DNA of 25,674 nucleotides from Vicinamibacterales bacterium (GTDB lineage Bacteria; Acidobacteriota; Vicinamibacteria; Vicinamibacterales; 2-12-FULL-66-21). Positions within the stretch are counted from its first letter, which is position 1, and each line of letters starts with the position of its first letter. Below are positions 2,906 to 20,463 of the stretch, in pieces. The position numbers and the translations under genes were made by a program. Under the pieces are notes generated by a model. It saw only the letters and a list, made by a program, of their open reading frames with translations. It was not told where the DNA came from and did no database searches. Location of the stretch: positions 1 to 25,674 of the forward strand of contig DASPFV010000150.1 in the NCBI GenBank assembly GCA_035620975.1. Direction: 5' to 3'.

Positions 2906-2984
2906 CCACGGACCCACACGGAAGGGGCCACGGACGAACACGGCTCCACACGGAAGGCGGCCACCGACGAGCACGGCGAGGGGG
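2906..2984. repeat. Degenerate copy (forward orientation) of the dispersed CACGG-motif repeat family: CCACGGACCCACACGGAAGGGGCCACGGACGAACACGGCTCCACACGGAAGG...
   Basis: Seen directly. It contains the 16-mer CCACGGACGAACACGG, which is identical to 17441-17456. It is intergenic, upstream of uvrB. Confidence 0.7.
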
Positions 2985-3164
2985 CGTTCCAAACGCTCGC
3001 CGCGGAGCAGCAAGCACTGCCCGCCGCAAATGCGGCGCATCTCGCGCCGGTCTCGAGCATGCTCGGCTTTGTGTGCCAAGTGCGTCCGGCCGTCCGTCAT
3101 CTTCGTAATCTTCGCGTCGGGATCCTCATTTCAGGTAGGGGGTCAGTTTTCAAAACGGCCGACG

Positions 3165-3195
3165 TTGACACAATGGCGCACGGTGTAAGATGGCG
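3165..3195 (+). promoter_or_regulatory. Possible sigma70-like promoter for the VOC gene (TTGACA ... TAAGAT). A perfect 11-bp palindrome GTTTTCAAAAC at 3147-3157 lies just upstream and is a candidate operator.
   Basis: Hexamers read from the sequence in the AT-richer stretch 3100-3310. The spacing is about 15-16 nt, which is sub-optimal. Confidence 0.3.
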
Positions 3196-3310
3196 GGCCG
3201 AGCCTTCCCGAACGAGCAAAAATGAAACCGAAGAGCATCGACACCACGCCGCCGCGGCTGAAAAGTCCCACCGGTGGTCAACGAAGGTTGTTTCTAGGAC
3301 GGGCATCGCG

Positions 3311-3718
3311 ATGAAGCCGCGAGTGACCTCTCTCGCGCCGCAGTTCCTTGTCGATGACCTTGAACGCTCGATCGCATACTACAAAAAGCTCGGTTTTACG
3401 TTCGGCGAACCATGGGACGGTTTTTACGCCATCGGCGAGTTGAACGGACTGGAACTCCACCTAAAGGAAGCACCCCACAACCAGGCGGAGCGTCGCTGGC
3501 GGCGCGACTGTGAGCATCTTGACGCCTCGGCCGGCGTCGACGGCATCGAAGCATTTTACGAACAGTGCGTCGCCAACGGCGTCACGATCATCAAGGCGCT
3601 TGCTGGGACGGCCTGGGGGACGAAGGACTTCTATATCGAGGACCCCGACGGCTACATCATCTCCTTCGGCGGCAGCCCAGCGGCCGGGCCGTTGGAATCA
3701 CGCAGGGAGTCAAGCTGA
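3311..3718 (+). CDS. VOC (glyoxalase / bleomycin-resistance / dioxygenase) family protein, about 135 aa
   Basis: Translation MKPRVTSLAPQFLVDDLERSIAYYKKLGFTF...GTKDFYIEDPDGYIISF is the typical paired beta-alpha-beta-beta-beta VOC fold signature. An AGGA lies about 11 nt upstream. GC content and third-codon-position usage are visibly lower than in neighbouring genes. Confidence 0.8.
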   Translation: MKPRVTSLAPQFLVDDLERSIAYYKKLGFTFGEPWDGFYAIGELNGLELHLKEAPHNQAERRWRRDCEHLDASAGVDGIEAFYEQCVANGVTIIKALAGTAWGTKDFYIEDPDGYIISFGGSPAAGPLESRRESS

Positions 3719-3875
3719 CCGACCACCATGGCTCAGCGTTTCACTGCGGGCTGCTCTGGCCCCCTGACCATCTTGGGAAATGCGGTTCAGCCCTTCGGGT
3801 CGAGGCACAACGGGTCAGGATGATCTCTCCGCTGGCCCAGTGCCCTGCCCAGTCGTAATCCGCACGCCTGCTCTG

Positions 3876-3948
3876 TCCGTGTCTCGTCCGTGTTCTTCCG
3901 TGGCGTGGTGTGGCGTGGTGTCCGTGTCTCGTCCGTGTTCTTCCGTGG
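3876..3948. repeat. Two copies of the 27-mer CCGTGTCTCGTCCGTGTTCTTCCGTGG separated by CGTGGTGTGGCGTGGTGT. This is the reverse-orientation member of the CACGG-motif repeat family.
   Basis: Seen directly. It is intergenic, between the convergent VOC and VWA genes. Confidence 0.8.
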
Positions 3949-3960
3949 CCTGGCGCGGGG

Positions 3961-4881
3961 TCAGTGGCCCCCTTCGCGATACGGCGCGAAGTAGCCGGCC
4001 CGCGTCCGCAGCTTCGCCTGGCGCAGCTCGGGCCGCTTGAGGCGGATCTTGACGTCGCGCCACGATCCGTCGAAGCGCGTGTCCGACGAGATGTAGCCGA
4101 GGCTGTACCGCGCGCTGATCTCCCGCTGGATCGACTCGTAAATCCTGTCGAGCTCCTTGACGCTCGTCGGGAAGAACGCCTGTCCGCCCGTGGCGCCCGC
4201 GATGCGCTGCAGCTGCATCCGGGCCTCGTTCTTCGCCGAACTGGAATAGCGCTCCAGGTAGCCGATGGCGTAGAGCGTGACGTCCGACGCCTTCAGGAGG
4301 TCGAGCAGATCCGAATAGGTCAGCGAGCTGCGCGTATCCCCGCCGTCGGTGTACACCAGCAGGATCTTCTGTCCCAGCTGCGAGGCGGCGCCGTTCAAGT
4401 ACACGCCCAGCGCGTCGTAGAAGGCCGTCCAGCCGTCCGGCTTCCGCATCCGGATGCGCTCGATCAGCCGCGCGTACTCGCCCGACGAGTACCGCGCGAC
4501 GCGCACTTCCGTGTCGAAGTCGACGAGCGTGACGTCCACGGCCGTCGTGTTGGCGTTGAGGAACTTGACGACCGCCGAGCGGACGACGTGGATGTCCTTC
4601 TCCATGCTCCCGCTCGTGTCGAGCGCCAGGCCGAGGTGCAGCGGCAATGCACCGGCCTGGGGCCCGTCGTCACCCGCCGTGAAATAGCGGACCGCCTGCG
4701 CCTTGCCTTCCTCGAGGACCTCGAAGTCCTCGACCGAGAGGCCGGTCACGGGCGTGCCCTGCTTGTCAGTGACGACCACGGCGAAGTGGACGAGATCCAC
4801 GCCGGCGCGAAACGGCTGCTGCGCAGCTGGCGCCGCGACGGCGATCACCGCGGCCACGGAAAGCAGCATCGCTGAGCGCAT
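3961..4881 (-). CDS. Secreted von Willebrand factor type A (VWA) domain protein. ATG at 4881 gives MRSAMLLSVAAVIAVAAPAAQQ, a signal peptide. A longer GTG start at 4908 is possible.
   Basis: The translation has a signal peptide followed by a VWA domain with a MIDAS-like DTSGSM motif (LALDTSGSMEKD) and a C-terminal extension. Confidence 0.75.
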   Translation of the reverse strand: MRSAMLLSVAAVIAVAAPAAQQPFRAGVDLVHFAVVVTDKQGTPVTGLSVEDFEVLEEGKAQAVRYFTAGDDGPQAGALPLHLGLALDTSGSMEKDIHVVRSAVVKFLNANTTAVDVTLVDFDTEVRVARYSSGEYARLIERIRMRKPDGWTAFYDALGVYLNGAASQLGQKILLVYTDGGDTRSSLTYSDLLDLLKASDVTLYAIGYLERYSSSAKNEARMQLQRIAGATGGQAFFPTSVKELDRIYESIQREISARYSLGYISSDTRFDGSWRDVKIRLKRPELRQAKLRTRAGYFAPYREGGH

Positions 4882-9636: not shown

Positions 9637-9650
9637 CGCCGCTGATCCTA

Positions 9651-9780
9651 GCACGGCCGCGGACACACACGGCCACGGAAGAACACGGCCACGGAAGAAC
9701 ACGGCCACGGAAGAACACGGCCACGGAAGAACACGGAAGAACACGGCCACGGAAGAACACGGAAGAACACGGACATACAA
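9651..9780. repeat. Tandem array of the CACGG-motif repeat family: the 16-mer CACGGCCACGGAAGAA four times, then mixed 10-mer (CACGGAAGAA) and 16-mer units, ending ...CACGGACATACAAT
   Basis: Seen directly. The units abut one another with no unique spacers. The array lies in the divergent intergenic region between greA (-) and the trmH-family gene (+). Confidence 0.9.
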
Positions 9781-9781
9781 T
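9776..9781 (+). promoter_or_regulatory. Perfect -10-like hexamer TACAAT formed by the 3' terminus of the repeat array, 8 nt before the GTG start of the methyltransferase gene. Implies a leaderless or near-leaderless transcript.
   Basis: Seen directly. There is no obvious -35 element; the tandem repeats occupy the upstream region. Confidence 0.35.
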
Positions 9782-9789
9782 ACTCGTCT

Positions 9790-10584: not shown

Positions 10585-11867
10585 CGCTCTTCGACGACCC
10601 GGAACCCGGGGAGACGCCCGCGTCGGCGCCGCTCGCCGAGCGTATGCGCCCCCGCACCCTGGACGAGTTCGTCGGCCAGTCGCAGCTCGTGGGCCCCGGC
10701 CGACCGCTGCGTCAGGCCATCGAGCAGGATCGGCTGCAGTCGATCATCCTCTGGGGGCCGCCTGGCACCGGCAAGACGACGCTGGCCAGGGTGATTGCGC
10801 GCGTGACCAGGGCGCAGTTCATCGCGTTCAGCGCGGTCCTTTCGGGCATCAAGGAGATCCGCGCGGTCATGGCGGAAGCCGAGGAAGCCCGGCGACGCCG
10901 GGGACGGCGGACGATCCTCTTCGTCGACGAGATACACCGGTTCAACAAGGCGCAGCAGGACGCCTTCCTGCCGCGCGTCGAGGCCGGCGACATCGTCCTC
11001 ATCGGCGCGACGACGGAGAACCCCTCGTTCGAGGTCAACTCGGCCCTGCTCTCCCGATCCAAGGTCTACGTTCTCCAGCCGCTCGGGGCCGAGGCCATCG
11101 TAACCATCCTCGAACGCGCACTGGCGGACCACGAGCGCGGACTCGGGAGCACGGGCGCCGTCGCGACGCCTGAGGCGCTGGCGGCAATGGCGCGCTTCGC
11201 CAACGGGGACGCACGCATTGCCCTCAACCTGCTGGAGATGGCGGCCGCGGCGGTCGGCCGCGGCACGATCGAGGCTCCGCTCGTCGCCGAGATCGCGCAG
11301 AGCCGCGCGCTGCTGTACGACAAGACGGGTGAAGAGCACTACAACCTGATCTCGGCGCTGCACAAGTCCATGCGCAACAGCGACCCCGATGCGTCGGTGT
11401 ACTGGCTCGCGCGGATGCTCGAAGCGGGCGAGGACCCCCTCTACGTGGCGCGGCGCCTGGTCCGGTTCGCATCCGAGGACATCGGCAATGCCGATCCTCG
11501 CGCGCTGTCGGTGGCCGTGGCCGCGAAGGATGCCGTGCACTTCATCGGCATGCCGGAAGGCAACACGGCACTGGCCCAGGCCGCCATCTACCTGGCGACG
11601 GCCCCCAAGAGCAACGCCGTGTACAAGGCGTATCTCGAAGCGGCCGAAGCCGCGGCCACGGAAGTCGCCGAGCCGGTGCCCCTCCACCTCCGGAACGCGC
11701 CTACTCGCCTGATGAAGGAACTGGACTACGGCAAGGGCTACAGGTATGCGCACGACGAGCCCGGCGGGGTCGCCGACATGGAGTGCCTGCCGCCGGCGCA
11801 CCGGGGACGCCGGTTCTACAAACCCACCGAGAGGGGCTACGAGGGAAAGCTGAAACGAGACGCCTAG
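10581..11867 (+). CDS. rarA: Replication-associated recombination protein A (RarA/MgsA), AAA+ ATPase
   Basis: MTLFDDPE...PLAERMRPRTLDEFVGQ..., Walker A GPPGTGKTTLA, Walker B ILFVDEIHRFNK and the MgsA C-terminal helical domain are all present. Confidence 0.9.
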   Translation: MTLFDDPEPGETPASAPLAERMRPRTLDEFVGQSQLVGPGRPLRQAIEQDRLQSIILWGPPGTGKTTLARVIARVTRAQFIAFSAVLSGIKEIRAVMAEAEEARRRRGRRTILFVDEIHRFNKAQQDAFLPRVEAGDIVLIGATTENPSFEVNSALLSRSKVYVLQPLGAEAIVTILERALADHERGLGSTGAVATPEALAAMARFANGDARIALNLLEMAAAAVGRGTIEAPLVAEIAQSRALLYDKTGEEHYNLISALHKSMRNSDPDASVYWLARMLEAGEDPLYVARRLVRFASEDIGNADPRALSVAVAAKDAVHFIGMPEGNTALAQAAIYLATAPKSNAVYKAYLEAAEAAATEVAEPVPLHLRNAPTRLMKELDYGKGYRYAHDEPGGVADMECLPPAHRGRRFYKPTERGYEGKLKRDA

Positions 11868-15247: not shown

Positions 15248-17413
15248 CTACTTCGCGAGCGGGTCCGGCCGGAGCTGGACCTTCATCACCTTGGGCGGCG
15301 TGCCCTTGCCCCCTTCCATATGGAACGGCGTACGCGTGCTCACGGTCGTCCACAGGCCGCGGCCCTTCCAGCCCGCCTTCGGGTCGTCGATGCGGCCGTC
15401 GAGCCATTTGGTGTAGTAGCCCATCGGGTACGGCACGCGCAGCACGACCCACGCACCGTCCTTCAGCACGAGCAGGCCTTCGGACGCATTCCCGGTGTTG
15501 ATCGGCACGTTGCGCCCGAGCCCCAGCGTGTCGAACTGGTCGACCCACGTGTAGTAGCTCGCCTCCGCGCTCCCCGGATCGGTCACGCCCTTCAATTGCG
15601 GGAGCGGCTCCTGATAGAGGGTCCACCCTTCGGGGCAGTGCTGGCCCGTCGCCTTCGGCCCGTTCAGCGGACCCTTGCACTTGCGGCGGTCGAAGCTCGC
15701 CAGGTGGCCGCTCGCGAGTGCCACCCAGGCTACGCCATCGCGATCGATGTCCATTCCGCGCGGCGAGAAGCCCTGGACTCGCGCGCCCGGATTGTTGAAC
15801 GGCGGCTCGTATACTTCGACGAGTGTCGTCTCCGGCGGGTTCGCGCCCGGCACCAGGCGCACGACCGCACCGGGGAAGCCCAGTACCGATCCCCAGACCG
15901 ACCCGTCGGGTGCTGGTGACACGGCGTAGAATCCTGCGCCGTACCGCTTGTCCTTTGCCGGATCGACGGGCTGGTCCGGCTCCACGTAGGCGTCACGCTT
16001 ACCGTTCCCGTTGGTATCGATGACGAGCGCCGTCCATCCCTGCGACTTCTCCTCGTCGCCGGTCTCGTCGAACATTCTCGTGTTCAGCCAGCCCACGACC
16101 TGTTGCCCGCCGCTCGTCCAGAGCGTGTGGTTCGCGTCCTCGGCAAACATGAGGTGATGCGTGCTGAAGCATGTGCTGATGTGGGTCAGCTTCTGCGTCT
16201 TCGGGTCGTAGACGGCGAGGTGGCGGCCGGCTCTCGCCAGCGGATAGAGCTGCGCCGACGGGTGTGCCGACCCTGCCTTGCAGAAATCCGGGTTGTCGGG
16301 AGGCCTGACCGTGGAGGTGATCCAGACGCGGCCCAGATGATCCAGCATCGGGTTGTGCACGTTGTTCTTGCTCGTCCAGATCACTTCCGCGCCCCAATAC
16401 GGCGATGGCTGCACCATCAGGGGCGAGGTGGGTGCGGTCGCTGGATCGCGGACCGTCAAGGGCACCCTGCCTGCTCGGTGTTGCACGGGGTCGAGCACGG
16501 GCAGGTAGTCGGCGCTCAGCTCGAGCGCGCCGTAGAGTGGGCCATCGGCGTTCAGGGTCGGGTTCCGCCGATCGGTCGAAACCAGGTCGTGGAGATAATG
16601 CCGGGGATCCGCCCAGTCCCAGATGGTGATGACGACGTTCCGCTCCAGTCCCTGCGGGCGCGGCGGCGCTGGCGGCACTTCTCCGGCGGCGATGCGGTCG
16701 GTCCAGTCAGCGAACATCGCCAGCGCGCGGTCGCGGCCGAGCGAGTTCAGCCCGTTGATCATCTGGGCGCCGGCCTGGCCGGACTGCAGGCGCCGCTCCC
16801 AGGCTGCCGTCGACGACGGGAAGACCCCCAGCTCCTTCGGAATCTCCCGCGTGCCTTTGGTACCCAGTCCATGGCACGCGGTGCACTGTCCCGACTTCAG
16901 CAACCGGAGCCACTCCGCCTGCGTCTTCAGATTGGGCGAGACGCCGTTCTCGGCCGTCCCCGGGAACTCGCTCTTGTCGGGCACGCGCATCAGCGAGAAC
17001 CAGTAGCCGGACGGATAGTACTCCGCCGCCGCACGCGGCGACGGCGCCGGGACGGCCTTCAGATCGAGGCTGCGTCCTGGCTGGACCTTCTGCCTGGGCG
17101 AATCCACGAGGCCGTAACCGCGTACCCACACCTCATAGCTGGCCTTCGGGAGGTCCGGAACCAGGTACCGGCCGCGATCATCGGTCACCACGATCCGCGC
17201 GAACTTCGTCGGCAGATCCGTGGTCTCCGCGATCACCCACACGCCGGCTTCCGGTCCTTGTGGACCGGAGACGACGCCGGTGATGTCGTCCGGGTCGACT
17301 GGAACCTGAGCCCCGGATCCCTGTCCGCGGAGCGCCGTTCCCGAGATCATCAGGCCTCCGCCGCAGGCTGCTGCCACGAGCGCCGCCGTTGCCATCCTGG
17401 TCATTCGACGCAT
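15248..17413 (-). CDS. Secreted 722-aa protein with an N-terminal CarboxypepD_reg-like domain and a single CXXCH heme-binding motif (c-type cytochrome-like), followed by a large uncharacterised domain
   Basis: A signal peptide MRRMTRMATAALVAAACGGG is present. The CarboxypepD_reg-like stretch is VVTDDRGRYLVPDLPKASYEVWVRGYG, and the CXXCH motif is KSGQCTACHGLG. A strong GGAGGGAAG RBS sits upstream of the ATG at 17413. The ORF-track N-terminal extension, 17414..17527, runs through the repeat element and was rejected. Confidence 0.7.
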   Translation of the reverse strand: MRRMTRMATAALVAAACGGGLMISGTALRGQGSGAQVPVDPDDITGVVSGPQGPEAGVWVIAETTDLPTKFARIVVTDDRGRYLVPDLPKASYEVWVRGYGLVDSPRQKVQPGRSLDLKAVPAPSPRAAAEYYPSGYWFSLMRVPDKSEFPGTAENGVSPNLKTQAEWLRLLKSGQCTACHGLGTKGTREIPKELGVFPSSTAAWERRLQSGQAGAQMINGLNSLGRDRALAMFADWTDRIAAGEVPPAPPRPQGLERNVVITIWDWADPRHYLHDLVSTDRRNPTLNADGPLYGALELSADYLPVLDPVQHRAGRVPLTVRDPATAPTSPLMVQPSPYWGAEVIWTSKNNVHNPMLDHLGRVWITSTVRPPDNPDFCKAGSAHPSAQLYPLARAGRHLAVYDPKTQKLTHISTCFSTHHLMFAEDANHTLWTSGGQQVVGWLNTRMFDETGDEEKSQGWTALVIDTNGNGKRDAYVEPDQPVDPAKDKRYGAGFYAVSPAPDGSVWGSVLGFPGAVVRLVPGANPPETTLVEVYEPPFNNPGARVQGFSPRGMDIDRDGVAWVALASGHLASFDRRKCKGPLNGPKATGQHCPEGWTLYQEPLPQLKGVTDPGSAEASYYTWVDQFDTLGLGRNVPINTGNASEGLLVLKDGAWVVLRVPYPMGYYTKWLDGRIDDPKAGWKGRGLWTTVSTRTPFHMEGGKGTPPKVMKVQLRPDPLAK

Positions 17414-17427
17414 CGGCTTCCCTCCGC

Positions 17428-17490
17428 CACGGAAGAACACGGACGAACACGGTGCCACGGAAAAACACGGACAAACACTGACAGATACAA
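17428..17490. repeat. Forward-orientation copy of the CACGG-motif repeat, CCACGGAAGAACACGGACGAACACGGTGCCACGGAAAAACACGGACAAACACTGACAGATACAA. It directly abuts the RBS of the cytochrome-like gene.
   Basis: Seen directly. Its terminus ...CACGGACA.ACA...ATACAA is shared with the array at 9651-9780. Confidence 0.85.
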
Positions 17491-17615
17491 GAGGCCGGAG
17501 GACCTGGAACTCTGCGCCGGCACTCACCCTGAGGTCGAGCGATCGAGCCGGTTGGATCAGCCGGAGTATGCCACGTAATCCTCCAGGCGGGTGTCCTCGA
17601 CCTCCGGATCTGAAT

Positions 17616-17734
17616 CCGTCCGTGTCCGTCCGTGTTGTTCCGTGGCCTCAACGTCCGTCCGTGTTCTTCCGTGGCCTCAACGTCCCGTCCGGGTTGTTCC
17701 GTGGCCTCAACGTACGTCCGTGTTGTTCCGTGGC
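17616..17734. repeat. Reverse-orientation tandem array: about 4 units of ~30 bp (CCGTCCGTGTTCTTCCGTGGCCTCAACGT). It runs up to and overlaps the mutL stop codon.
   Basis: Seen directly. Together with 17428-17490 it forms an inverted-repeat pair around a 125-bp core. Confidence 0.85.
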
Positions 17735-19507
17735 TCAAATCCGCTGGAAGTTGCGCTCGATCTCCCGGCGCGTCATCCGCAGGACGACCGGACGGCCGTG
17801 CGGGCAGACGCTGGAATACGCCGTCCGTCTGAGCTCGTCCAGGATGTAGCGCATCTTCGCGAGCGTCAACGGGTAGTTCGCCTTCACCGCGGCGTGGCAG
17901 GCCATCGTCGCGGCGATTCGGCGCAACGCATCTTCCACGCGCGAGCCGCCGTCGAGGCCTTCGAGGTCGTCGGCCAGCGCGCGGATCGCCGCCTCGCAGT
18001 CGGCGGGCTCCAGTATCGCGGGCACGGCGACGAGGCGGAGGCTGTTGCCGCCGAACTCCTCGACCTCGAGGCCGAACCGGTCGAGGGTCGAGTTGTGCCG
18101 CGCGACCACCTGACGCTGCGCGGGCGAGAGCTCGATCAGGATGGGGGTCAGGAGCCGCTGGCTCTCGAGCCGGCTGGCGGTCAGCTTCTCCATCATCTGC
18201 TCGAACAGCACCCGCTCGTGTGCCACGTGCTGATCGACGATCGCGACCCCCTCGTCGTCCACGGCGATGATGAACGTGTCGCGGAACTGCCCCAGGGGGA
18301 TCATCGGGCGGATGTCGGCCGCGGAAACGGCCGGGGCGACGCCGCCAGTGGAGCCCTCCGGCAGCGCGTCCGCCGGCGCTGTGCCGGCGAACGCACGGAA
18401 CGCCGCGTCGTGCTCGGCGCTCCACCGGCTCCCGACCGACGCGCCGGACAGGACCCCCGGCAGCGGCGCGGCGCGCGGCGCGTCCGCTCGCGCGGCGAAC
18501 GGCGTGAACTGCAGCTCGGGGACGCGCCCCTGCCCGAGCGCCTCTCCGAGGGCCCGGCGCAGCACCTCGTGCACCAGCGACTGTTCGAGGAAGCGGACTT
18601 CGGCCTTGGTCGGGTGTACGTTGACGTCCACGCGGTCCGGCGCCAGCTCGACGAAGAGGTGCACTTCCGGGCTGCGTTCCTTGATGGTCGCCACCGTGTA
18701 CGCCTCACCGATCGCGTGCGCGATCGTCCGGTCGCGCACGATGCGCCGGTTCACGAAGACGTTCTGGGCTCCACGCACGGGCCCTTCGTCGCCCAGTGCC
18801 GCGATGTAGCCGTGCAGGCGGATGCCGCCCGCCTCCTTGCGCACCTCGATCAGATCGGGGCGCTCGCCGAAGAGCTGGAAGAACCGCTCGGCGAGGCCGC
18901 GGGCAGGCGGGCACTCGAGCAGGCGGCGGGAACCGCTCGTCAGCGTGAACCCGATCTCGGGATAGCCCAGGGCGAGCTGGGTCACCAGTCGTGAGACCTG
19001 GGCTGACTCCGCCGTGTCCGACTTCAGGAACTTGCGGCGCGCCGGCAGGTTGTAGAAGAGGTCGGCGACGTCGATGCAGGTTCCTTCCGGCGCCCCCACT
19101 TCGCGCTCGGAGGTGACCGTACCGCCGCTCACCCGGATCTCGGTCCCGCTCGCCGCGCCTCTCGCCCGGCTGCGGAGCACGAAGTGAGACACGGACGCGA
19201 TGCTCGGGAGCGCCTCCCCTCTGAACCCGAGCGTTCGAATCGCGGCGAGATCCTCGGGTGAGGCGATCTTGCTGGTTGCATGCCGCTCGATGGCGAGCCG
19301 CGCGTCGTCGGGCTCCATGCCATCGCCATCGTCCTCGACCCGGATGAGCTTCTTGCCGCCGAATTCGATGACGACGGCAACACGGCGCGCGTGAGCATCG
19401 AGCGCGTTCTCGACCAGCTCTTTGACGACCGACGCCGGACGCTCGACGACCTCGCCGGCGGCTATCTGATTGGCCAGGTGCGGCGGCAGGCGGTGAATCA
19501 CAGCCAT
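17735..19507 (-). CDS. mutL: DNA mismatch repair protein MutL, 590 aa, starting at MAVIHRLPP
   Basis: The GHKL ATPase N-terminus is LPPHLANQIAAGEVVERPASVVKELVENALDA, with transducer and C-terminal dimerisation domains. The ATG at 19507 overlaps the corA stop. Confidence 0.9.
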   Translation of the reverse strand: MAVIHRLPPHLANQIAAGEVVERPASVVKELVENALDAHARRVAVVIEFGGKKLIRVEDDGDGMEPDDARLAIERHATSKIASPEDLAAIRTLGFRGEALPSIASVSHFVLRSRARGAASGTEIRVSGGTVTSEREVGAPEGTCIDVADLFYNLPARRKFLKSDTAESAQVSRLVTQLALGYPEIGFTLTSGSRRLLECPPARGLAERFFQLFGERPDLIEVRKEAGGIRLHGYIAALGDEGPVRGAQNVFVNRRIVRDRTIAHAIGEAYTVATIKERSPEVHLFVELAPDRVDVNVHPTKAEVRFLEQSLVHEVLRRALGEALGQGRVPELQFTPFAARADAPRAAPLPGVLSGASVGSRWSAEHDAAFRAFAGTAPADALPEGSTGGVAPAVSAADIRPMIPLGQFRDTFIIAVDDEGVAIVDQHVAHERVLFEQMMEKLTASRLESQRLLTPILIELSPAQRQVVARHNSTLDRFGLEVEEFGGNSLRLVAVPAILEPADCEAAIRALADDLEGLDGGSRVEDALRRIAATMACHAAVKANYPLTLAKMRYILDELRRTAYSSVCPHGRPVVLRMTRREIERNFQRI

Positions 19508-20463
19508 CGGCGCCGCCGGAACCACGACAGCATCAGCAGGCTCGTCGCAACCATGATGCCGGCGATCCACCAGAACTGGCTGGACTCGCCGCCCGGCAGG
19601 TGCGGGAGAGGCACGTTCATCCCGTAGAGGCCGGTGAGCACCGTCAGGGGCATGAAGATGGTCGCGATGACCGTCAGCACCTTCATCACGGTGTTCAGCT
19701 GGTTGGACACGGCCGAGAGATGCGCGTCCATCAGGCTCGTGATGCGATCGGCGAAGAACAGCGCCTCGTCCGAGAGGCGGACCAGGTGATCGTAGACGTC
19801 GCGGAAGCGGTACGACATGCCCTCGGAGATCTGCCCGAACTCCCGCCGCGCCAGCCGGCTCACGACGTCGCGCTGCGGCATGATCACCCGGCGGAGCGAG
19901 CTGACGTCGCGCTTGAAATCCAGAATCCTCCGCGCGAGCCTCGGATCCGGCCGCTCGAACACCTCTTTCTCGAGCTGGTCGAGGCGAGCGCCCAGCTTCT
20001 CGACCTCAGGGCGGTAGTTGTCGACCATCGTGTCGACGATGCGATGGAACAGCGCGACGGGGCCTTCGCCGAGCGCGCGCTCGTTGCGGACGCAGATGTC
20101 CGACACCCGCGCGATCGAGCGCGACGTGCCAGCGTGAACGCTGACCAGGTACTGCTGCCCGAGGAAGAAATCCACGTCCTGCGTCCTGAACTCGTGCTCC
20201 CGCGCCTTGAAGTCGATCCCGTGGAGGATGACATACAGATGGTCGCCGTACAGCTCGACCTTGGGGTGGTGGATCTCCATGAGCGCATCCTCGATGGCGA
20301 GCTCGTGGAAGTGGAACACGTCGGCAAGGACGCGGGCGTCCCCGGGCGCGGGATCGCTGATATCCACCCACACCCATGCTCCGCTGCCCGGGCGGAGCCA
20401 GTCGGGGTCCACCCGCTCGGCATGGCGGGTGGCCCCGTTCTGGTGGACGAAAATGGTGGTCAA
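19498..20463 (-). CDS. corA: Magnesium/cobalt transporter CorA. A TTG start overlaps the ppdK stop (TTGA).
   Basis: The YGMNV signature (GLYGMNVPLP) and two C-terminal TM helices are present, and the length is typical at 321 aa. Confidence 0.85.
   Translation of the reverse strand: MTTIFVHQNGATRHAERVDPDWLRPGSGAWVWVDISDPAPGDARVLADVFHFHELAIEDALMEIHHPKVELYGDHLYVILHGIDFKAREHEFRTQDVDFFLGQQYLVSVHAGTSRSIARVSDICVRNERALGEGPVALFHRIVDTMVDNYRPEVEKLGARLDQLEKEVFERPDPRLARRILDFKRDVSSLRRVIMPQRDVVSRLARREFGQISEGMSYRFRDVYDHLVRLSDEALFFADRITSLMDAHLSAVSNQLNTVMKVLTVIATIFMPLTVLTGLYGMNVPLPHLPGGESSQFWWIAGIMVATSLLMLSWFRRRRWL

Follow-up and report, generated by a model that had tools for sequence, protein, structure and literature searches.

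Between mutL and its downstream gene, the window analyzed here, an entire contig of 25,674 bp (68% GC) from a short-read metagenome-assembled genome (MAG) of a member of the Vicinamibacterales (Acidobacteriota), carries a 313-bp imperfect palindrome built from short tandem repeats. We consider it rather probable that this region represents a single copy of a dispersed palindromic repeat, non-coding and non-autonomous, which resembles both REPINs (hairpin-forming pairs of repetitive extragenic palindromic, REP, sequences) and miniature inverted-repeat transposable elements (MITEs), and the arms of which have grown by local tandem duplication. The family appears to be undescribed so far and to be widespread in soil metagenomes. 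The original prediction, made from the DNA letters alone, had described the region as a MITE-like inverted structure, the core of which could encode a small RNA.

A Palindromic Repeat Downstream of mutL

The palindrome lies within a run of minus-strand genes, between mutL (17735-19570; Pfam MutL_C, DNA_mis_repair, and HATPase_c) and a gene encoding a secreted, cytochrome-like CarboxypepD_reg/CxxCH protein of 721 aa (15248-17413), in the following called cyt. Its left arm (17426-17483, plus strand) consists of two units of 28 and ~30 nt, each starting with GCCACGG, and contains five boxes CACGGAnnAA in a 10-nt phase; the motif scan placed boxes at 17428-17442, 17438-17452, 17456-17470, and 17466-17480 on the plus strand. 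The right arm (17615-17734, minus strand) is made up of four 29-30-nt units of the form TTGAGGCCACGGAAsAACACGGACGnACG, with minus-strand boxes at 17620-17732 in the motif scan, and Tandem Repeats Finder reported an array at 17624-17738 with a period of 29, 4.0 copies and 90% matches. Both arms can be aligned over 84 nt with ~80% identity, and they include the inverted pairs 17454-17489/17611-17646 (36 nt, 83% complementarity) and 17426-17452/17620-17646 (27 nt, 93% complementarity). Repeat, motif and tandem-repeat scans therefore confirmed that a forward arm and a reverse tandem arm surround a unique core, which measures about 125-130 nt.

Folding of 17414-17745 as minus-strand RNA resulted in −170.8 kcal/mol, compared to −130.4 ± 5.6 kcal/mol for dinucleotide shuffles (z-score −7.2), and folding of the same region as DNA yielded −86.3 kcal/mol with the same z-score, likewise against dinucleotide shuffles. 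The proposed long imperfect palindrome is hence able to fold, and in the minus-strand RNA the predicted stem extends from ~58 nt past the mutL stop to the last nucleotide ahead of the Shine-Dalgarno sequence of cyt. The expectation of a small, non-coding element between two genes of the same strand was also borne out, the only open reading frames (ORFs) being repeat-derived or upstream extensions of the frames of the flanking genes. A further inverted match just inside the arms does exist, between CCGGAGGACC (17495-17504, one position to the right of where it had been placed at 17494-17503), located in the unique segment that forms the left-arm inner flank and the left part of the core (17484-17530), and GGTGTCCTCGACCTCCGG (17590-17607), which is followed by ATCTGAA in the right-arm inner flank (17590-17614). 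This pairing is weak and, taken alone, not significant, as 150 of 1000 shuffles equaled it.

Both outer ends of the palindrome, with the flanks ...TTTGA| and |GGAGG, lie directly at signals of the neighboring genes. The outer end of the left arm touches the ribosome binding site of cyt (CTTCCCTCC/GGAGGGAAG, 17417-17425, minus strand; start codon ATG at 17411-17413), so that the arm is indeed located near the start of this gene, at a distance of 12-14 nt from the ATG and not, as assumed before, of 14 nt from the ribosome binding site. The right arm had been described as running into the mutL stop codon (TGA, 17735-17737, minus strand), which touches its outer end: the last clean box ends at 17734, against the stop, and the overlap with the stop is confined to the degenerate terminus of the last unit.

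That the core, with the arms as flanking structure, represents a small regulatory RNA seems very improbable to us. In its favor, the structured arms enclose a unique sequence, and the minus strand contains one terminator-like site, a weak 5-bp stem at 17505-17492, which is the sole match to the terminator consensus. A scan for sigma-70-like promoters detected none in the palindrome region and none in or beside the arrays of this repeat; the large stem is not followed by the U-run of an intrinsic terminator; and the Rfam 15 covariance models yielded nothing at E ≤ 1 over 17380-17780, while neither a transfer RNA nor any Rfam family was found at gathering score in the whole window. Moreover, the core (17484-17605) had no match elsewhere in the window, which is the covered part of its own genome (25.7 kb), or in ~200 fetched loci, and the loops of other family members are unrelated.

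Unit Structure and Further Arrays in the Window

The repeats of the two arms belong to a family with several members in the window. The motif CACGGAMRAACACGG matched 22 times with at most two mismatches, compared to 0.24 expected matches, and a scan for box clusters yielded exactly five arrays, which are distributed over three intergenic spacers (a convergent pair in each of two and a solitary array in the third), in comparison to 0.2 clusters in shuffled sequence. All five arrays are intergenic and lie tightly against gene boundaries; a sixth, weak cluster inside cyt is probably due to chance. The box consists of (A)ACACGGA followed by two variable positions, with the 10-bp AACACGGA boxes arranged in tandem, a form that can also be written as (AACACGGAAG)n, and the family can be searched with the pattern GCCACGGAAGAACACGG. 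In its basic module of ~26-33 nt, GCCACGG precedes two or three (A)ACACGGAnn boxes in a 10-bp phase; the higher-order units range from 16 to 37 nt and start with GCCACGG or, in short hairpin forms, with GGACACGG. A spacing of exactly 10 nt from one CACGG to the next occurred 450 times in repeat-bearing contigs from metagenomes, as opposed to four times in ~1 Mb of control loci.

A solitary array (9652-9775, plus strand; periods of 16, 10, and 26 nt) makes up 124 of the 153 nt of the divergent spacer between greA and an rlmB-like methyltransferase gene (9637-9789). The promoters of both genes must sit in or beyond this array, and a TACAAT is found 8 nt ahead of the GTG start codon of the methyltransferase gene. 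The remaining two arrays form a second inverted pair between uvrB and a VWA gene. The first of these (2907-2977, plus strand) has its outer end against the conserved sequence TGGTACGAT upstream of uvrB, and the second (3874-3949, minus strand; two 45-nt units) is located 12 nt downstream of the stop codon of the VWA gene. They enclose a segment of lower GC content (2978-3873, plus strand; GC 0.61), which contains a gene for a VOC/glyoxalase protein (3311-3718).

Comparison With Related Genomes

The closest relatives with readable DNA share ~80% nucleotide identity with the window. On the contigs of the four closest homologs of the Cyt protein (85-87% amino acid identity), an ORF of 159-170 aa is located just upstream of cyt; CorA-MutL precedes it on two of the four, and the remaining two contigs end within the preceding gene. 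The gene order on both sides of the palindrome, CorA-MutL ... cyt-NfeD-Band_7, is the same in the window, with the CorA gene at 19498-20463 (minus strand), as in the relatives. The hydrophobic product of the additional ORF (L081 3305-3784; contigs of P0003, P0004, and P0005) has no Pfam or NCBIfam match, and the ORF is missing from the window. In L081, the sole contig of the four of which the DNA was read (~80% identity on both sides), the motif was not found even when three mismatches were allowed. As the relatives hold the 159-170-aa gene at this site, the locus cannot be explained by a simple insertion of 310 bp, which had been proposed as something to look for together with a target-site duplication (TSD): the repeats are missing from the relatives as would be expected, there is a gene instead of an empty site, and no TSD is present. 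Neither is the opposite case observed, namely the same DNA as conserved, non-mobile sequence in relatives, since these lack the repeats and since the fold is strong.

Judged from these comparisons, the ORF is gone at the mutL locus and the arrays stand in its place, which explains why the window lacks the mutL-downstream ORF of the relatives. Part of the original DNA seems to be left. The core segment 17531-17589 (minus strand) aligned collinearly with the last codons and the downstream spacer of the ORF in L081 (3751-3807) with a score of 16, compared to 10.8 ± 1.5 for shuffled sequences, of which one in 300 reached this score. Native DNA therefore probably sits between the arms.

An artefact of the short-read assembly, i.e., a mis-join or a collapse at repeats, is hardly credible as the origin of this architecture. 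The contig does end inside another repeat and tandem arrays collapse easily; the flanking gene order, however, matches that of the relatives, a simple collapse at inverted repeats cannot delete the ORF between them, and the same architecture was found on contigs from independent projects and assemblers.

The other two spacers with arrays also differ from those of relatives. Between the VWA gene and uvrB, three independent relatives with UvrB proteins of 89-90% identity (L209, L210-212, and L213) have only 63-100 nt, with neither an array nor a VOC gene, while the corresponding spacer of the window comprises 1094 nt and consists of the minus-strand array, ~0.9 kb of lower-GC DNA with the VOC gene, and the plus-strand array. 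Because of this difference in length, the whole block 2907-3949 has the appearance of an inserted segment similar to a mobile cassette, with the two arrays as boundaries of a ~1-kb segment missing in the relatives. Ahead of uvrB, the window and the relatives L209, L210, and L213 all share the conserved sequence TGGTACGAT (2886-2894 in the window), which is similar to an extended −10 element, and the array of the window ends exactly there, replacing the DNA of the former −35 position. At the same site, L213 (~4340-4370) carries a minimal hairpin, TGA-CCACGG-cctctg-CCGTGG-TACGAT, from which the family might have arisen or which might be left over from it. The greA/rlmB-like spacer, 153 nt long in the window, has a length of 69 nt in a relative.

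Additionally, the motif was not found in 80 species-representative loci (~1 Mb, Vicinamibacterales included) gathered with the Cyt protein; as the cyt-mutL order is not conserved in them, these loci were used as motif-free controls only. Exact-protein look-ups of Cyt and the VOC protein of the window yielded no match. On the basis of these comparisons, we regard the family as one that was gained, or that bloomed, in particular lineages, and not as conserved regulatory DNA.

Distribution and Orientation in Metagenomes

A scan of metagenomes using the 17-mer CACGGAAGAACACGGAC as query matched at least 120 stretches. Many of the contigs bearing the 17-mer hold arrays, with up to 23 matches of the two-box motif, the GC content of array-bearing contigs ranges from 0.56 to 0.72, and the sites are non-homologous. 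Several array-rich contigs encode the ADOP permease, which is typical of Acidobacteria, and a contig of the hairpin type (L103) encodes a ProS with nearest named matches of only ~45% identity. Viral and phage contigs gave just four single matches, which corresponds to chance level. Literature searches with the motif string found only a coincidental primer, and no paper was found that ties Vicinamibacter to intergenic tandem repeats.

Neighboring arrays follow a strict orientation rule. Among opposite-orientation neighbors at most 160 nt apart, 15 were convergent (CACGG-> <-CCGTG) and none was divergent, and this holds for co-directional, convergent and divergent gene contexts alike. The enclosed loops are 7 to 160 nt long and unrelated between loci, apart from one loop that is common to three copies on the same contig (L098). 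The outer ends of the arrays are also defined: in 99 unique ends, a G was found at position −2 in 75% and a C at position −1 in 78%, preceded by an A/T-rich stretch, resulting in the profile W-W-T-n-n-R-G-C|CACGG. A TAG was located 1-2 nt upstream in 16 of these ends and a TGA in seven (1-2 nt) or nine (1-3 nt), and, by reading, the full GTAG occurred in just two of the listed outer-end flanks. None of 17 palindromic copies, i.e., the one downstream of mutL and 16 others, showed a TSD, the mean best direct match being 1.47 nt compared to 1.34 nt in a control with mismatched flanks. With respect to the surrounding genes, for which rough gene calls were used, 29 of the classified copies are located in co-directional, 17 in divergent and seven in convergent spacers, and none is intragenic; solitary arrays in co-directional spacers face the stop codon of the upstream gene in 19 cases, as compared to six in the other direction.

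Apart from their positions, the arrays vary in length at one and the same site. An array of 625 bp in L116 corresponds to one of 227 bp in L160, although the flanks are 98-99.7% identical, and at another site ~13 units of 33 nt in L191 correspond to a single one in L194, with the L191 unit taking in 8 nt of native flank. The right arm in the window shows a similar pattern: TTGAGGCC, which stands at the start of its units, copies the mutL end TTGAGCC, and this end is native, given that TGAGCC is also present in L081, a relative free of the repeats. The variation in unit number and the native flank inside units together indicate that the arrays grow by local tandem duplication. Recombination is also observed: L093 (2651-2727) and L119 (1498-1574) contain the same palindromic element with the loop reverse-complemented between the two, the result of recombination between the arms. 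Beside this element, L093 (2752-3080) harbors an unrelated, MITE-like insertion of 330 bp with perfect 22-bp terminal inverted repeats (TIRs; CTAGGAGCCTGTCGGACTTAGG), which is missing from L119.

Since unit numbers differ between strains in the manner of a variable number tandem repeat (VNTR; L116/L160 and L191/L194), it might be asked if the palindrome merely consists of two independent minisatellite arrays that face each other by chance and that arise and are dispersed through slippage, gene conversion or templated repair. Units including native flank, the existence of solitary arrays, and, at the mutL locus, the different higher-order units of the arms (28 as opposed to 29 nt) with native-looking DNA between them would all be compatible with such an origin. 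Independent arrays, however, would not be expected to converge in 15 of 15 close pairs, and the orientation rule therefore argues against them. Furthermore, the occurrence of the same 15-17-mer with the same outer end at non-homologous sites that span the whole observed range of GC contents needs dispersal and not just slippage in situ. We consequently rate this explanation as unlikely.

The arrays might also be phased binding sites, with one box per helical turn, for a DNA-binding or nucleoid protein of the host that regulates the flanking genes. The exact 10-bp phase, the conserved 8-mer with two free positions, the frequent location between divergent genes, in spacers that contain promoters (17 of 53 classified copies), and the contact of arrays with the −10-like TGGTACGAT of uvrB and with the translation starts of greA and cyt would fit to such a role. 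Nevertheless, relatives that have retained the same genes lack arrays in the orthologous spacers, and close relatives differ in unit number (1 as opposed to 13, and 6 as opposed to 17); both observations argue against host regulatory sites. As the neighbors are unrelated genes of all kinds and no sigma-70-like promoter is found in or beside the arrays, a function of this type appears quite improbable.

Search for a Mobilizing Enzyme

All-against-all clustering of the ORFs near arrays did not reveal any recurrent transposase or other enzyme in ~700 kb of repeat-bearing contigs. A search for HUH/Y1 protein motifs identified one IS200-like TnpA (L153), the flanking repeat of which is a different one; no gene for a REP-associated tyrosine transposase (RAYT) or a TIR-associated Y1 transposase (TIRYT) flanked by the family was seen in the contigs searched. 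Fragments of an IS256/Mutator-like transposase are located between inverted arrays in four contigs (L142 560-1580, L157 1705-2285, L171 535-1095, and L160 13135-13870). These contigs share one flank or the other and overlap at an apparently single locus of related strains, at which the deletion derivatives differ. The fragments were considered as remains of a parent insertion sequence (IS) and rejected, because they have TIRs of their own (GTGTCAG..TTGTGTGT.GGGC) and all four contigs represent one locus, which identifies them as nested insertions.

In L098 (1-2149), L153 (4426-4924), and L158 (135-988), the repeat occurs in its short hairpin form on the flanks of small genes, which presumably belong to the GxxExxY, Uma2, and Rpn families, the Rpn-like one matching NCBIfam only weakly, at a score under the curated cut-off, and the Uma2-like one being assigned by reading, with no NCBIfam match. 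All three families are highly paralogous in some genomes, and no enrichment of them beside hairpins was detected in the sample. Several other types of elements, namely a CsrA-type GGA sponge, DnaA boxes, attC sites, uptake sequences, and telomerase-like break healing, were dropped upon reading of the sequences due to a poor fit with the density, the orientation, the defined outer ends or the heterogeneous boxes.

Relation to Known Repeats and Proposed Mode of Spread

REP sequences and REPINs are moved by RAYTs, which are Y1 transposases, and in a comparable manner TIR families flank TIRYT genes, which are also known from Acidobacteria (Bertels and Rainey, 2011, PMC3116915; Di Nocera et al., 2013, PMC3733652). 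The family described here shares with REPs and REPINs a high copy number and an extragenic location (five arrays in 25.7 kb; no intragenic one among the classified copies), the dominance of head-to-head inverted dimers with long hairpins (15:0), other orientations being rare, the absence of TSDs, lineage-specific blooms, the conservation of a short motif at the outer foot, and the additional occurrence of singletons and clusters. It differs from them in that its unit consists of two or three direct 10-bp boxes and is not a palindrome, so that hairpins only form between opposed arms, in that its clusters are direct tandem arrays while those of bacterial interspersed mosaic elements (BIMEs) alternate, in its outer tag R-G-C (often TAGGC or TGAGC) in place of GTAG or CGTC, and in being common in divergent promoter spacers.

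A second group for comparison comprises dispersed minisatellites such as the mycobacterial interspersed repetitive unit (MIRU)-VNTR loci and the heptamer arrays of cyanobacteria known as short tandemly repeated repetitive (STRR) sequences, both of which form direct arrays only. Short tandem units at many intergenic loci, strain-variable copy numbers, and a position hard against stop and start signals are common to these and to the family, but neither a head-to-head rule nor a polar outer end is known from them, and their unit sizes and sequences are unrelated.

With MITEs and mobile insertion cassettes of bacteria (Correia/NEMIS, Nezha, MIC231), the family has in common that the elements are short, non-coding, and intergenic, can be located only a few nucleotides away from start or stop codons, and possess inverted ends, which can enclose a passenger gene as in 2907-3949. 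A classical MITE, i.e., a single 310-bp deletion derivative of an IS with the arms as TIRs, moved by a DDE transposase encoded elsewhere, would account for inverted terminal repeats of 84 nt with ~80% identity, for a non-coding element that with 313 bp remains below ~600 bp, for multi-copy arms, for the absence of the element in relatives, and for the ~0.9-kb cargo between the inverted arrays near uvrB. On the other hand, no TSD is present here or in the 16 further copies, the core is unique among the sequences searched and probably in part a native ORF remnant, and the internal sequences are unrelated between copies. In addition, the arms are tandem arrays of variable unit number, of which solitary (9652-9775) and long direct forms also exist, and the repeat-bearing contigs did not yield any parent IS with such ends, the IS256-like fragments being nested and having other TIRs. 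Inverted arms, a multi-copy family, and absence at the sites of relatives thus speak for the MITE interpretation of the original prediction, which is partly supported, whereas a core without matches in the sequences searched, the lack of a TSD, and the lack of an autonomous parent in the repeat-bearing contigs do not; in its classical form we consider it improbable. The family is most likely closest in its behavior to REPs and REPINs, with additional traits of MITEs and minisatellites.

For the dispersed REPIN/MITE-like repeat that we favor, the observed arrangement and the proposed mode of spread are as follows. Modules occupy intergenic spacers with their defined outer end toward the neighboring gene, mostly head-to-head (CACGG-> ... 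<-CCGTG) around a locus-specific spacer, and each arm grows or shrinks via local tandem duplication, taking in a few nucleotides of native flank. At the mutL locus, one arm is found right after the mutL stop codon, at the place of the lost 159-170-aa ORF, and the other right before the ribosome binding site of cyt, probably with a native stretch between them. The family would spread in trans by an enzyme that leaves no TSD, the leading candidate for which would be an HUH/Y1 enzyme of the RAYT/TIRYT type, because the absence of TSDs and conserved nucleotides just outside the end are what single-strand HUH/Y1 enzymes such as those of IS200/IS605 and RAYTs produce. If the element is co-transcribed with mutL, the imperfect stem of ~85 bp (−171 kcal/mol) would be expected to act as a barrier to RNA processing or as a 3′-end stabilizer, and, by analogy with REPs, it would then stabilize or terminate the upstream message, while a strong helix against the downstream Shine-Dalgarno sequence could modulate the initiation of translation.

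Several points weigh against this reading. No transposase or other enzyme could be tied to the repeats in the ~700 kb analyzed, a single unit is not a palindrome, and a clear GTAG or CGTC tag is absent, so that two hallmarks of REPs are lacking. The native-looking core seems to fit two separate insertions of arms better than the transposition of one palindromic unit. With 25.7 kb of the genome and relatives of ~80% identity as a basis, gain cannot be told from loss with certainty, and the minimal CCACGG-N6-CCGTGG hairpin at the uvrB site of L213 could mean that this site is older than the arrays. Moreover, all effects at the RNA level are deduced from predicted structures, and, since the MAG was assembled from short reads, its arrays may be collapsed or their lengths underestimated.

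A more far-reaching interpretation, which we regard as doubtful, would see in the family a previously undescribed class of mobile palindromic minisatellite, widespread in uncultured soil bacteria, the hosts of which would include one or more lineages that lack named relatives, besides Vicinamibacterales and further Acidobacteriota: a ~30-nt module of 10-bp-phased AACACGGA boxes that would insert without TSD next to T-R-G-G-C, pair head-to-head, bracket and perhaps move passenger genes (VOC, 2978-3873), and be recognized by a trans-acting enzyme reading multiple phased boxes.

REPs and REPINs are well studied in Proteobacteria and barely described in Acidobacteriota, which are among the most abundant phyla of soil. 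The family has a defined signature that is easy to search and a strict orientation rule, and thereby offers a concrete lead toward a new repeat-mobilizing enzyme as well as a possible marker for strain typing. Its variation between strains and its position at start codons, stop codons, and a promoter −10 element make effects on operon expression likely, and the same applies to genome rearrangement, by loop inversion, adjacent deletion or nested IS insertion, and to breaks in MAG assemblies.

Further Observations

Two observations concern DNA other than the arrays. The locus L208 (10001-12700) encodes a UvrB homolog of 899 aa (P0241) in which UvrB_inter and UvrB_3rd are duplicated, probably reflecting an internal duplication or a mis-assembly. 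The end of the contig (25496-25674) consists of a different, GC-rich repeat with a period of 108 bp, which contains GGGGACCCCC and probably caused the break of the assembly at this position; a related 30-mer is found at 11428-11457.

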